The translations under genes and the position numbers were made by a program. DNA of 64,000 nucleotides. Origin: a virus (lineage: Duplodnaviria; Caudoviricetes). A model generated the notes under the pieces. It ran no database searches, had not been told where the DNA came from, and worked only from the letters and a program-made list of their open reading frames with translations. The stretch is from the IMG/VR virus record IMGVR_UViG_3300029288_000149, positions 1 through 64,000 of that record; one strand, 5' to 3'. Positions 34,679 through 57,118 of the stretch are shown piece by piece; the stretch's first letter is position 1; every line of letters starts with the position of its first letter.

Positions 34679-35764
34679 TTAGTCCAGAATTGGGTTCCCT
34701 AATTGATAACTACCTTGACTCAACATTGATGATAAATCCTCACGTTCCTGCTTGTTGAACCTCATATTATTAATCTTTTGATAATCTCTGATAAGTAATC
34801 GAACAGATGGTGTTAAACCTCGTTTTCTCATCTTATCAGCAATATCATACATTTGATTTGTTATGTCATCAAGAACTTGTTCATAAGCATCTTGTGCTTG
34901 TGACTCTTGCCCTGTAGTATCATACTCACCAGATGCAATTCTTCTGTTATGTAAAATTTTCATATTTTCTGTAACATTACTGGTATCATCCCTAAACATA
35001 TTAGCATATGCCTCGTGAGCACTACCTCTACTCAATTCTCCATCCTCATTGGGGATACGTGATCTAATTCCTGGTAAATCTCCAGGTTTATCATCTGGAG
35101 AATGAACTTCTCTACGATTGAGTTTAGTAGTCTTCCTACCACTCGCTTGACCACCAGCAGGAAGGGATCCACCATGATGACCGGGAATGCCTCTGTGTCC
35201 ATGATGTCCTGAACCGGGACCACCTTTGAGCCGCATAACATAAGATTTACCAATAAATTCCTTCTGACCTGTCCAGTAATCTTCGAGTGACTTTGTGTCT
35301 GGAGGAGTTACGAGTATGCCGTACTTCTCAGGACCGAGCATAGCCTTGTATCCAAAACCCTTCAGATAGTTAATCATTCCTTGCACTTGCTTAGGTGTCT
35401 CTGCACCATAAGCAACCATAGGGAATGATCCAAGATCATGTGTGCCATCCTCAGATAAATGAGAAGTATCACTACCATAAACAGTATAACCAACTTTAGT
35501 TCTACTGTTTATGAGCTCAGCAGCACCTCTTGCAATGTCCTTAACAATTCTTCTGTCTGTAAAAGATTTGATGCCAAGAGCAATTGCCTTCTTACCAATG
35601 GCTATAAGTTCCTTAGAATAAGGATCCAAACCTGATTCATCAGGAGCTTGGGAACCAGATGCCGAGCTACCTTCAGGAGAACTCCCACCAACAAAACCAG
35701 GACGACCTTTATGACCATGAAATCCTGATCCAGGACCACCTTTGAGTCGAATTGTATAAGCCAT
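34679..35764 (-). CDS. Tag-cargo protein 2 (two tags, two orphan domains)
   Basis: Tags at the N-terminus (~35675-35750) and internally (~35158-35233). Confidence 0.8.
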   Translation of the reverse strand: MAYTIRLKGGPGSGFHGHKGRPGFVGGSSPEGSSASGSQAPDESGLDPYSKELIAIGKKAIALGIKSFTDRRIVKDIARGAAELINSRTKVGYTVYGSDTSHLSEDGTHDLGSFPMVAYGAETPKQVQGMINYLKGFGYKAMLGPEKYGILVTPPDTKSLEDYWTGQKEFIGKSYVMRLKGGPGSGHHGHRGIPGHHGGSLPAGGQASGRKTTKLNRREVHSPDDKPGDLPGIRSRIPNEDGELSRGSAHEAYANMFRDDTSNVTENMKILHNRRIASGEYDTTGQESQAQDAYEQVLDDITNQMYDIADKMRKRGLTPSVRLLIRDYQKINNMRFNKQEREDLSSMLSQGSYQLGNPILD

Positions 35765-35765
35765 A

Positions 35766-36092
35766 TTAGACCACCTTCTCAGCTAAAAATCCTGACACAC
35801 CTACGCTCCCAGGAATAAGCCAGATTAACGACACGTAATTACCACTAACTAAATATACGTAAGTTAGTGAGAGTAAAATCGCTATCCATGTGCCTGTACA
35901 CCAATGACATACCAATAATTTAGCAAAGAATTTCGTCGGAGGATCATACACTTCCTCATCACCAATAAAGGAGTAATGTACTCCAGCCAAAATTCTGACC
36001 TTCTTGAAGATATCTTTTGGACCATCCGTATAACATATCAGATAAGTCAATCCAAAGGTTGCCAATCCTATAACAAGTATAGACTCAAGCAC
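35766..36092 (-). CDS. DUF1360-like membrane protein
   Basis: GLATFGLT...D...F..VR and LLVCHWCTGTW with hydrophobic helices. Confidence 0.65.
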   Translation of the reverse strand: MLESILVIGLATFGLTYLICYTDGPKDIFKKVRILAGVHYSFIGDEEVYDPPTKFFAKLLVCHWCTGTWIAILLSLTYVYLVSGNYVSLIWLIPGSVGVSGFLAEKVV

Positions 36093-54954: not shown

Positions 54955-55860
54955 CTAATATCTTCCCTTATTTAAGAAACTTGCATAAGCATTAGTGTCT
55001 AATATCTTCAATTCTGTTCCAACTGCAGATGCAATTAATTTCGGTGTATTACCATTTGTGTCATACAAGTCCACTGATGACATACCACTATACTTTACAA
55101 TATCTTCAAAGACTCTTGAGACAGAAGCATGATTCTCACGCAAGACAGACTCAGGTATATATCTTCCAGTCTTCTTTGCTCTTGAGATGCTTCTAGCAAC
55201 AGCAGTCTCGACATCAACCGTAACATAAATACCTTTCACTGGTTGTCCATTTCTGCTGAGTTTCTCGACCTTTGAGAGTACTGACTTTATACCACCATCA
55301 CCAGTCCCATCCATTAACACATTGTAACCATTGTCTGATGCTTCTGCCATTATTTCTTTTGCCAAATATGATGATTCTTCATGTACAAATGGTGCTCTAT
55401 TTGGATCCTTAGGATCTCCAAATTCGTATTCAGGTAACATTCCCTTTATGTCATCACCAGATGCAAGCACAGTATTATCAGGAATTTTGACAAAACCACT
55501 ATTTACAATTGTGGATTTACCAGAAGCAGGACCACCTCCTAAAATATATGAGACAGGATCTTTTACAGGAGTCTTGTCTTCAAAAAATTTCTTCTTTATT
55601 TTATCATGTAAGACTTGACGTTCTTTTGTCCAAGTACCATCAGAATTTCTGTACTGTTCCATTGTATCTAAACCATCAGGATTTGCCATCTTACCTGTGA
55701 ACACACTCTTCTTATCTACAATTTTAGTCTTTTTGTCTGAAGACAATTTACCTCTTGCTGAACTTCCTGAAGGTAAGGATCCACCATGATGACCTGGTAT
55801 ACCTTTATGTCCATGGTGTCCTGAACCTTCACCACCCTTGAGTCTGATTATGTACTTCAT
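54955..55860 (-). CDS. Tag-cargo protein 8: zeta-toxin-like P-loop kinase
   Basis: ATG 55860: MKYIIRLKGG tag; GGPASGKST, DDIK, HEESS, NVLMDGT and R..KTGRYIP. Confidence 0.82.
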   Translation of the reverse strand: MKYIIRLKGGEGSGHHGHKGIPGHHGGSLPSGSSARGKLSSDKKTKIVDKKSVFTGKMANPDGLDTMEQYRNSDGTWTKERQVLHDKIKKKFFEDKTPVKDPVSYILGGGPASGKSTIVNSGFVKIPDNTVLASGDDIKGMLPEYEFGDPKDPNRAPFVHEESSYLAKEIMAEASDNGYNVLMDGTGDGGIKSVLSKVEKLSRNGQPVKGIYVTVDVETAVARSISRAKKTGRYIPESVLRENHASVSRVFEDIVKYSGMSSVDLYDTNGNTPKLIASAVGTELKILDTNAYASFLNKGRY

Positions 55861-55861
55861 G

Positions 55862-57118
55862 TCAAAGCTCCTTATTCCTCGAGTCACCGACAGCATACTT
55901 ATCACGAAATGCTTTACTTTGATATGTAATTACACCAAACATACCTGTCTCTGACAAAACTGATGAAATAAATGCATCTTCAAATGGGACTCCATAGTAA
56001 GCATTACCAGCAGTCTTCCATGTGTTGTCAACAACATTACCACTCTTATCTACACACCATGCATGTTCTATCGGTATGTCAGCAAAGTCAGGAATGGCAA
56101 GACCTTCAACATATTGCAATTCATCATGTGCTGATGCTAGATAATATGCATTCATATAGCACAGCTTTGGCTTGCCTAATTTATACTTCTTAGGTAATTC
56201 TTGAGGAATATAAAACTTACCATGCCTCTTTACGACACCATAAATGGAATTCTCTTGCATATTTGATACTTTGTCCACAAAGTCAGTCAAGACTCTCTTA
56301 CTATCATTTGAGGAAGATACTAATACACCTCTTGGTAAGCTACCACCTTCTTGTCCAAGACGTCCCTTATGACCATGAAAGCCACTTCCTACACCACCTT
56401 TATACTGATGTGCTAATTTACCTATTAGTTGTTGGAATTCTTTGTTTTTGTAGGTAATAGTCTTCAAATTAGTAATAAATGAATCCCACATATTAGAAAC
56501 TTTTGTATCGTCTATAAGTTTACCACCATGCTTGTCTATAAGATCTTCAAGTGTCGCTTCTCTTTTAGGCAGCCATGTACTTAAGAATTTGTCCGTACCT
56601 ATGACTTTGTAATCACCACCAGAAAATTTATCAGCAACAGCATTAGCTTGATCTCTTAATACATCGAAACTAGACATATCATTGGTGTACGGCATTCTAA
56701 CAGTAATTGCAGGTGAGAAGAATATGTCATTCTCTCCAATATACATACCAGAAGCAATTGCAGCATCTTTTATGGACTGTAATTGTTCAGGAGTATTTTT
56801 ATGCTTCCAAAATGCTATATAGCCTACACCTCTTGAGCGTCTATCAGGATAAGGATAATCAACCATTAATCCTGATGCACTTTGTGCAGAATTATATCCC
56901 ATCTTATGTAATTCTTCAAGAGTGTCAGCAATTCCTGCATCAACTCCTTTAGCAACACCTTCAGCATCTCTTACTCTAACTCCCATAGAATCAATTGTTA
57001 TTGGCTTGTCTGTTGTCGATAAAACACCACGTGCGATAGATCCACCAACTTCTCCCTTACGACCTTTGTGTCCATGAAAACCTGAACCTAAACCACCCTT
57101 CAATCTACCAATAATCAT
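55862..57118 (-). CDS. Tag-cargo protein 9: two tags, orphan domain + Cys-His-Asp (transglutaminase/papain-like) domain
   Basis: ATG 57118: MIIGRLKGG tag; internal tag at ~56330-56405; CYMNA...EHAWC...VDNTW. Confidence 0.75.
   Translation of the reverse strand: MIIGRLKGGLGSGFHGHKGRKGEVGGSIARGVLSTTDKPITIDSMGVRVRDAEGVAKGVDAGIADTLEELHKMGYNSAQSASGLMVDYPYPDRRSRGVGYIAFWKHKNTPEQLQSIKDAAIASGMYIGENDIFFSPAITVRMPYTNDMSSFDVLRDQANAVADKFSGGDYKVIGTDKFLSTWLPKREATLEDLIDKHGGKLIDDTKVSNMWDSFITNLKTITYKNKEFQQLIGKLAHQYKGGVGSGFHGHKGRLGQEGGSLPRGVLVSSSNDSKRVLTDFVDKVSNMQENSIYGVVKRHGKFYIPQELPKKYKLGKPKLCYMNAYYLASAHDELQYVEGLAIPDFADIPIEHAWCVDKSGNVVDNTWKTAGNAYYGVPFEDAFISSVLSETGMFGVITYQSKAFRDKYAVGDSRNKEL

Follow-up and report, generated by a model that had tools for sequence, protein, structure and literature searches.

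What separates the parts of a phage protein set in which one short glycine-rich element stands both at the start of genes and between domains within them? The question is raised by the first 64,000 nucleotides (the window) of the viral record IMGVR_UViG_3300029288_000149, an uncultivated phage record of 75,316 bp with a completeness estimate of 96%, in which a recurrent peptide tag is spread over a series of minus-strand genes on both sides of the head genes. A preliminary description made from the letters alone had proposed that the tagged proteins are polyproteins, and that their cargo is released either by the prohead protease, cutting after Lys, or by the phage's own Cys-His-Asp domain, cutting after Gly-Gly at a string resembling the ubiquitin tail. 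On balance we favour the view that the tagged modules are capsid cargo, released by the phage's own head protease cutting after the Lys of a leader that precedes the tag.

The mechanism that we propose is as follows. The tagged genes would encode a capsid-internal arsenal of effectors (ADP-ribosyltransferase (ART), zeta-type kinase, MuF-linked, metallopeptidase-like and Cys-His-Asp modules), which can be seen as the polyvalent proteins of phages in split form. In front of each module stand a short phage-specific leader (here M-K-x-x-I-R-L-K), a universal stretch of 20 residues, GGxGSGxxGHxGRPGxxGGS, and a spacer rich in Gly, Ser and Ala. An assemblin-type prohead serine protease would most likely cut (V/R)-L-K↓GG, after the leader Lys (arrows mark predicted cuts), the same hydrophobic-K↓ site being predicted in the capsid propeptide (VLK↓E) and in the protease's own scaffold (LK↓E/D/S/A). 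In genes with two modules, extra xK↓E(F/L) sites, which lie 3-12 residues ahead of the internal leader, may also separate the modules. Every mature module would then begin with the universal tag, and the enzymes would probably be packaged in the capsid and injected along with the DNA.

Anatomy of the tag

The window was scanned in six frames, and the profile of the resulting alignment (A1, 12 window copies) was then run over the whole record. The scan gives 12 tag copies on the minus strand, across nine open reading frames (ORFs), with the pattern x5-(R/V/Q)(L/F/Y)K-GG-x-GSG-xx-GH-x-G-xx-G-xx-GGS, and 13 columns of A1 are invariant (K, GG, G, S, G, G, H, G, G, GG and S). The profile search raises the number to 14 copies, of which the two beyond the window lie at 70764-70862 (internal) and 72019-72117 (N-terminal). 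All strings quoted in the preliminary description could be located as described, including a second, internal tag in three ORFs, namely 34679-35764 (at amino acid (aa) 178), 44863-46893 (aa 262) and 55862-57169. Leaders of this phage are 7-12 aa long, and those of the M-K-x-x-I-R-L-K type head ten N-termini. Most N-terminal copies have an AAGGAG-like Shine-Dalgarno sequence 6-10 nucleotides before the ATG, and these copies are genuine protein N-termini. Several tagged genes start in overlap with the preceding stop codon, the portal stop codon, for example, overlapping the start of the first tagged gene.

The recurrence exceeds chance, LKGG being observed 12 times against 0.65 expected. The DNA copies of the tag in this genome are only 68% identical to one another, with 53% identity at third codon positions against 42% expected from codon usage, and Ser is encoded in them by both TCN and AGY codons. 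Third positions close to random, with both Ser codon families in use, indicate selection on the peptide and not a DNA repeat, and on the same grounds a DNA recombination joint or a product of gene conversion was rejected as the origin of the tag.

Two subtypes of the tag occur in the window, GRPG(E/F)VGGS and GIPGH(H/Q)GGSLP, as seen when the tags at 35138-35248, 42467-42577, 46015-46125 and 55750-55860 are compared with the remaining window tags. In both 34679-35764 and 44863-46893 the N-terminal copy is GRPG(E/F)VGGS and the internal copy GIPGH(H/Q)GGSLP; the order is the same in the relative L001, and the subtypes alternate in L007. At the DNA level the tags at 35227 and 42556 are 91% identical and are followed by similar residues, which suggests one recent duplication of tag and module start between an internal position and an N-terminus.

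The residue before the tag

In this phage clade K precedes GG in each of the 37 distinct tags; L stands before K in 20 of them, and the preceding residue is V in 15 and R in 14. These V/R-L-K leaders are the (V/R)-L-K of the scaffold sites described below, so that the leader matches the predicted protease site.

For a wider test, 114 viral contigs were fetched by a pattern that fixed the tag core alone, of which 55 carry two or more distinct tags. Within a contig, 86% of tag pairs agree in the residue next to GG, as against 19% after shuffling (maximum 30% in 1000 shuffles), whereas the neighbouring leader position is near background (12% within-contig identity versus 8%). This supports the interpretation that the residue before GG is phage-specific and that a single position is concerned, as would be expected at a cleavage site. 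The leaders fall into classes: E with L or I two residues earlier (74%), A or L with R (54-93%), R with V or I, and K with L directly before it. The residue before GG can be D, N, L, A, E, H or Q across other phages, some of whose leaders are as short as MK-GG and MVIN-GG.

The E class equals the cleavage motif of the T4 head protease gp21, L/I-x-E (PMC9026906). On one contig from IMG/VR (L134, 64.7 kb), five leaders end in ILE, LFE or FFE before GG, and the same contig encodes a protease of the gp21 family Peptidase_S77 (gene L135, E 8e-16). Nine contigs of the other classes, including two complete genomes, gave no match to Peptidase_S77 (PF03420), and neither did the genome studied here.

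The N-terminal leaders of L134 are about 20 aa long and end in L-x-E, and one of them begins MVNQEFV; we take them to resemble the capsid-targeting sequences of T4. A leader of that kind and the universal tag may thus coexist in phages with a gp21-type protease.

A divergent head protease and its predicted sites

The product of gene 40527-42047, which lies directly upstream of the capsid gene here and in the relatives L001-L004, was modelled with AlphaFold2 (AF2) from 50 homologues. Residues 90-262 are confidently predicted, with a predicted local distance difference test score (pLDDT) above 90 in the core, and in a Foldseek search of the PDB the top matches listed are all herpesvirus assemblins (probability 0.66-1.0, at least 0.9 in the best ten; E 2e-3 to 5e-2). 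His139 and Ser188, the latter in SRGF, are invariant across the 50 homologues. The protein is too divergent for family models, and its membership of the family is therefore argued from fold and catalytic residues; these support its assignment, in the model, as an assemblin/HK97-type prohead protease fused to a scaffold. A Cys4 zinc ribbon (CPHC...CPKC) is inserted in the protease domain (window 41380-41460, about aa 197-223), with all four Cys invariant in the 50 homologues. Such an insert is unusual for the prohead protease family, and some sources annotate it as Mu Com-like or S27AE-like.

Candidate sites for this protease are concentrated where they would be expected. As the preliminary description had noticed, VLKE occurs near the capsid N-terminus and in the scaffold; the four copies in the proteome (about 22,800 aa, 0.63 expected) are all found there, one in the capsid N-terminus and three in the scaffold (Poisson P about 2e-8 for those two proteins). 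LK is found at 27.7 per 1000 aa in the scaffold versus 6.9 in the proteome. Across 57 homologues, scaffolds carry on average 5.3 hydrophobic-K-E sites versus 0.95 in shuffled sequences, and 8.2 hydrophobic-K versus 3.6. The Lys mostly has R-L or V-L in front of it, and the next residue is E (56%), S, Q, K, A, D or G. In the capsid protein, hydrophobic-K-(E/D/A) is present in 52 of 53 homologues, 12-13 residues before the IYGRYSIF core; the N-terminal extension varies from 20 to 80 residues, the distance from site to core is fixed, and K is better conserved than the residue that follows. This is the signature of a predicted maturation site.

The HK97 prohead protease gp4 cuts the capsid protein gp5 after Lys103, and by analogy with HK97 we read the capsid and scaffold cuts of this phage as falling after Lys. 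From the match between these sites and the leaders we infer that the tagged modules are cut after K, and not after E. Of the two release routes proposed in the preliminary description, the cut by the prohead protease after K is thus the one that we favour, the cut by the Cys-His-Asp domain after GG finding no support, for reasons given below, and sequence comparison indirectly supports the head protease as the best candidate for the processing enzyme. Trypsin also cuts after Lys, so that semi-tryptic mass spectrometry is blind to the predicted cut.

Fused and split forms

The polyprotein interpretation is supported by the relatives of this phage. In P0265, which is the nearest relative of the 55862-57169 gene and is 93% identical to it over the Cys-His-Asp domain, the reading frame runs through ...NKEL-D-MKYMIRLKGG... 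into a zeta kinase, so that two genes of the window are fused exactly at the leader; at the fusion point this phage has a stop codon, one base and an ATG. The zeta kinase is likewise fused in frame to the preceding gene in P0062 and P0267. The occurrence of fused and split forms in close relatives indicates that N-terminal and internal tags are interchangeable. Internal translation starts were rejected as the source of the modules, Met being found before 16% of internal tags versus 23% expected.

Each of the three internal tags of the window is preceded by a linker with KE (10, 10 and 12 residues before the K of KGG), as had been described, and the L001 homologue of 34679-35764 retains both tags and the QKEF linker. 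KE occurs within 16 residues upstream of the internal KGG in 10 of 19 cases in the clade versus 20 of 180 elsewhere (Fisher 5e-5), and KE with a hydrophobic residue in 9 of 19 versus 5 of 180 (Fisher P 1.3e-7), some of the 19 clade cases being homologous, so that independent events are nearer 6-7 of 15. The KE linkers match the scaffold LK-E-(F/L) sites and probably represent extra cuts by which linkers are trimmed.

Distribution of the tag

Among 1.84 billion protein clusters, 3,587 representatives match the A1 profile (E ≤1e-3), multi-tag proteins among them. The best matches are proteins of 600-3,000 aa with 3-10 tag copies, spaced 227 aa apart in the median; no tag lies less than 47 aa from the C-terminus, and about half of the best-matching proteins also start with it. 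The consensus of 520 internal copies is (L/I/V)(R/V/I)x(K/R/L)-GG-P-GSG-(N/H)(F/H)-GH-A-GRPG-EV-GGS-(A/L)P, in which the initial GG is 97-98% invariant and Gly recurs at every third residue, five times over. Domains carried by tagged proteins include ARTs, zeta, GNAT, 2H, Fic, ParB, MuF and several zincin families, and the metallopeptidase families DUF6782, DUF2268, SprT-like, MPTase-PolyVal, M48 and M76 recur. Shortened tags are found in L011 (16827) and in L002 (17160) and L008 (18554), and start MKARIVLK-SFPGHKGIPGHQGGS and MKIILRTK-SFPDPGHEGRPG; they keep the leader and the GHxGxPGxxGGS half, with SFP in place of GGxGSG.

The tag is apparently undescribed: no Pfam, PHROG or NCBIfam model covers it, and no description was found in the literature searched by motif string. 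A tblastn search of 50,697 phage records with the tag gave no match, for which the low-complexity filter is possibly to blame. Searches for cultured phages made with the zeta module matched Cyanophage PSS2 gp030, a polyvalent head protein without the tag, and those made with a seven-tag protein gave matches to the zeta domain only. A scan of prokaryote genomes returned a single 1.8-kb fragment with no indication of host.

For the tag itself, which would be retained on the mature modules, docking to the procapsid interior and priming or threading at ejection are our guesses. Going further, GGxGSGxxGHxGRPGxxGGS could label the capsid cargo of tailed phages universally, as an address or for ejection. 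The head protease would expose it at the N-terminus of each module, and its binding to a conserved feature of the procapsid interior or portal channel would be the reason why thousands of otherwise unrelated phages conserve it; this we put forward tentatively, as possible rather than probable.

Alternative explanations

Several observations weigh against release by the head protease. The 40527-42047 product has no Pfam or PHROG match, Peptidase_S78 and Peptidase_S77 included, and the Foldseek E-value for the protease is only about 2e-3. Some relatives have N, T, H or E before the K of their leaders, against L in their scaffolds, and covariation of leader and scaffold beyond the Lys is only partial within the clade; the link between protease family and leader class comes from one contig. 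LKE in capsid and scaffold also fits a T4-like L-x-E cut after Glu, in which case the tags would stay uncut. Cleavage after the leader leaves the near-invariance of the 20 residues across thousands of phages unexplained. HExxH is present in 66 of 150 large tagged proteins (about 44%), and embedded peptidases could do the processing instead. Finally, we found no cultured tag-bearing phage, virion proteome or experimental cleavage on record.

It is conceivable, if unlikely, that the tag is not cut and acts as a flexible linker and packaging label, the leader being conserved for another reason such as docking as a beta-strand on scaffold or portal. A glycine-rich peptide with its regular spacing of Gly would suit a linker, the imperfect match of leader and scaffold in some relatives agrees with such a role, and the N4 vRNAP, like some polyvalent proteins, is packaged without being processed (PMC5512222). 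However, conservation of only the residue abutting GG is what is expected of the main specificity position of a protease, and that residue corresponds to the known T4 motif. Leaders such as MK-GG and MVIN-GG are moreover too short for docking strands, and the interchange of split and fused forms in close relatives likewise speaks against a tag that stays uncut.

We consider it quite unlikely that embedded peptidases, i.e. the tagged HExxH proteins 70038-71051 and 71062-72135 and/or the Cys-His-Asp domain, recognise the universal tag and cut the polyproteins. In favour of such a role, the tag is the sole element common to the modules, metallopeptidase families and HExxH recur as noted above, the Cys-His-Asp domain is found in 17 tag-bearing sequences, and autoproteolysis of polyvalent proteins by way of their MPTase domain has been predicted (Iyer et al., PMC5512222). 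However, a universal protease acting on a universal tag would predict neither a phage-specific residue before GG nor L/I-x-E leaders alongside a gp21-type protease; both peptidase motifs are missing from more than half of the large tagged proteins, and both HExxH proteins of this phage lack a Pfam match.

The Cys-His-Asp domain had attracted attention in the preliminary description as a possible deubiquitinase-type protease. RLKGG resembles the ubiquitin tail LRLRGG and the LxGG sites of viral papain-like proteases, and the domain has invariant Cys, His and Asp. The likeness is limited to the local RLKGG string, which only this phage and its nearest relative have; before GG, other members of the clade have VNK, VTK, VHK, VEK or EEK. 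The AF2 model of the domain (pLDDT 85) gave no significant Foldseek match in the PDB, and its weak matches, none of them a deubiquitinase, include papain/transglutaminase-type enzymes; vasohibin, a Tae4-type amidase, PeiW and phytochelatin synthase occur there among unrelated folds. That a deubiquitinase-type protease in the C-terminal domain of 55862-57169 cuts after RLKGG is therefore highly improbable: VNK, VTK, VEK, LxE, RxA, xxD and xxN precede GG elsewhere, where the Leu and basic positions that define such a site vary, GG itself belongs to the invariant tag, the best hit of a PDB sequence search is MINDY-2 at an E of only about 1, and of the roughly 264 tag-bearing sequences searched (150 proteins and 114 contigs) only 17 contain the domain. 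From its sequence distribution the Cys-His-Asp domain appears to be one recurrent cargo module.

Double-glycine leaders, which are 15-30 aa long, end in GG and go with a C39 domain on an ABC exporter, were also considered. They were rejected, the leaders being 7-12 aa here and down to 2 aa elsewhere, and no C39 or ABC transporter match was found on the tagged proteins.

Comparison with known systems

The proposed release of tagged cargo by the head protease has a close counterpart in T4, where the internal proteins IPI-III and Alt carry a capsid-targeting sequence that is cut by the prohead protease gp21 (PMC9026906). There too, unrelated enzymes, an ADP-ribosyltransferase included, share a short N-terminal leader that ends in a head-protease site, and the cargo enters the prohead, undergoes trimming and leaves with the DNA on ejection, a course that is proposed from sequence for the present phage. 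In T4, however, the shared element is the leader that is removed, whereas here the shared element is predicted to stay and it is the leader, specific to each phage, that would be removed; T4 has Glu before the cut and this phage Lys; and modules of the present kind also occur as multi-tag polyproteins.

The repertoire of the tagged proteins (ART-PolyVal, zeta kinase, MuF, zincin peptidases, GNAT, 2H, Fic and ParB) is that of the polyvalent proteins, with which they also share a head-gene neighbourhood, predicted delivery with the DNA and predicted proteolytic release of modules (PMC5512222). Large homologous tagged proteins have 3-10 modules, with several unrelated effector domains in one polypeptide; unlike polyvalent proteins, the arsenal of this phage is mostly split into genes of one and two modules. 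The text of the paper on polyvalent proteins mentions no glycine-rich or inter-module tag, and its authors proposed that processing is done by an embedded MPTase (Iyer, Burroughs, Anand, de Souza and Aravind 2017, PMC5512222).

With HK97 gp4 the protease of this phage would share the assemblin fold, the cut after Lys and the removal of an N-terminal part of the capsid protein, all of which are predictions here. It differs in having no Pfam S78 match, in its zinc-ribbon insert and in being fused to a separate scaffold, whereas the HK97 protease acts on the delta domain. Temperate phages reportedly encode MuF polymorphic toxins, in which a MuF head domain is joined to toxin modules that vary and are presumably packaged; in the present phage, by contrast, MuF is C-terminal, behind two tagged modules. 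Encapsulin cargo-loading peptides are short, Gly-rich, usually C-terminal and uncut, and address enzymes to the inside of an HK97-fold shell. The phage tag is similar in being a short Gly-rich peptide on unrelated enzymes, its binding to the capsid being conjectural, and the two are unrelated in sequence.

Tagged genes and their neighbours

The features of the window are collected in Table 1. The last 210 aa of the 44863-46890 product are common to genes that follow the portal in L002 and L004. Beyond the window end, the tagged genes 70038-71051 (HEVMH) and 71062-72135 (HELGH) carry HExxH, which makes their products candidate metallopeptidases; neither has a Pfam match, and the former has a small Cys-containing N-terminal domain ahead of its internal tag. 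Between the capsid gene and the next tagged gene (window 35766-39011) lie a DUF1360-like gene and two glycosyltransferase genes, one GT2 and the other GT2 with a Glyco_trans_1_2 domain. A thymidylate-synthase-family gene and two FkbM-type methyltransferase genes (49037-50134, 50201-50869 and 53458-54129) separate the portal from the second cluster of tagged genes.

Table 1. Head genes, tagged genes and predicted cleavage sites in the window. Positions are those of the window; leaders are given in brackets or as named; arrows mark predicted cuts.
Feature	Position	Strand	Remarks
Tagged gene	33118..33618	(-)	N-terminal tag 33505-33615, leader MVKLTIRLK; cargo fold unassigned, no Pfam/PHROG match
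Two-module tagged gene	34679..35764	(-)	Tags: N-terminal 35654-35764 (MAYTIRLK), internal 35138-35248 (KSYVMRLK)
K-E of linker QKEF	35258..35263	(-)	10 residues before K of internal KGG; candidate secondary protease site
Major capsid protein, clade-specific	39109..40485	(-)	N-terminal propeptide of ~24 aa; no Pfam match
VLKE at capsid N-terminus (aa 22-25)	40411..40422	(-)	Predicted maturation site VLK↓E
Scaffold half fused to protease	40527..41261	(-)	Acidic, helical; 10 LK sites
Scaffold VLKE sites (aa 315, 366, 381)	41094-41105, 40941-40952, 40896-40907	(-)	
Prohead serine protease domain	41262..41780	(-)	~aa 90-262 of 40527-42047 product; His139, Ser188 invariant
Tagged gene	42098..42577	(-)	N-terminal tag 42467-42577, leader MKFTIRLK
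Tagged ADP-ribosyltransferase (ART-PolyVal)	42659..43429	(-)	Tag 43319-43429, leader MKFTLRLK; Pfam PF18760, E 2.4e-15
Small tagged gene	43995..44333	(-)	Tag 44223-44333, leader MKLTIRFK
Tagged gene	44336..44866	(-)	Tag 44756-44866, leader (M)RFMLRLK, GTG start
Two-tag gene, MuF-like Cys-rich head domain at C-terminus	44863..46890	(-)	phrog_24776, E 9e-21
Tags of 44863..46890 gene	N-terminal 46774-46884 (MVMRAVVVLK); internal 46015-46125 (SKNIVVLK)	(-)	
K-E of linker FKES	46135..46140	(-)	10 residues before K of internal KGG
Portal protein (putative)	46890..48827	(-)	Assigned from position and conservation in relatives; no Pfam match
Tagged zeta-toxin-type kinase	54955..55860	(-)	Tag 55750-55860, leader MKYIIRLK; Pfam PF06414, E 8e-23
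Two-tag gene with C-terminal Cys-His-Asp domain	55862..57118	(-)	Product ends ...NKEL
Tags of 55862..57118 gene	N-terminal 57011-57121 (MIIGRLK); internal 56312-56422 (KLAHQYK)	(-)	
Cys-His-Asp domain	55865..56310	(-)	Invariant Cys (56159-56161), His (56063-56065) and Asp (56027-56029), alignment A4
K-E of linker NKEF	56438..56443	(-)	12 residues before K of internal KGG

Significance

Proteins that are carried in phage heads and injected are usually known only via virion proteomics of cultured phages. If the rule of leader plus tag is true, injected effectors could be listed from metagenomes for thousands of uncultivated phages, among them ADP-ribosyltransferases, kinases, peptidases and many unassigned folds. 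The residue before GG would then report the head-protease specificity of each phage, and the proposal that embedded metallopeptidases process polyvalent proteins would have to be revised. The tag would also offer a handle by which foreign proteins could be brought into phage capsids in laboratory strains. Should the tag also prove to be a universal label, it would be the phage counterpart of the encapsulin cargo-loading peptides; injected effectors would be predictable from sequence, and foreign proteins could be loaded into phage heads.

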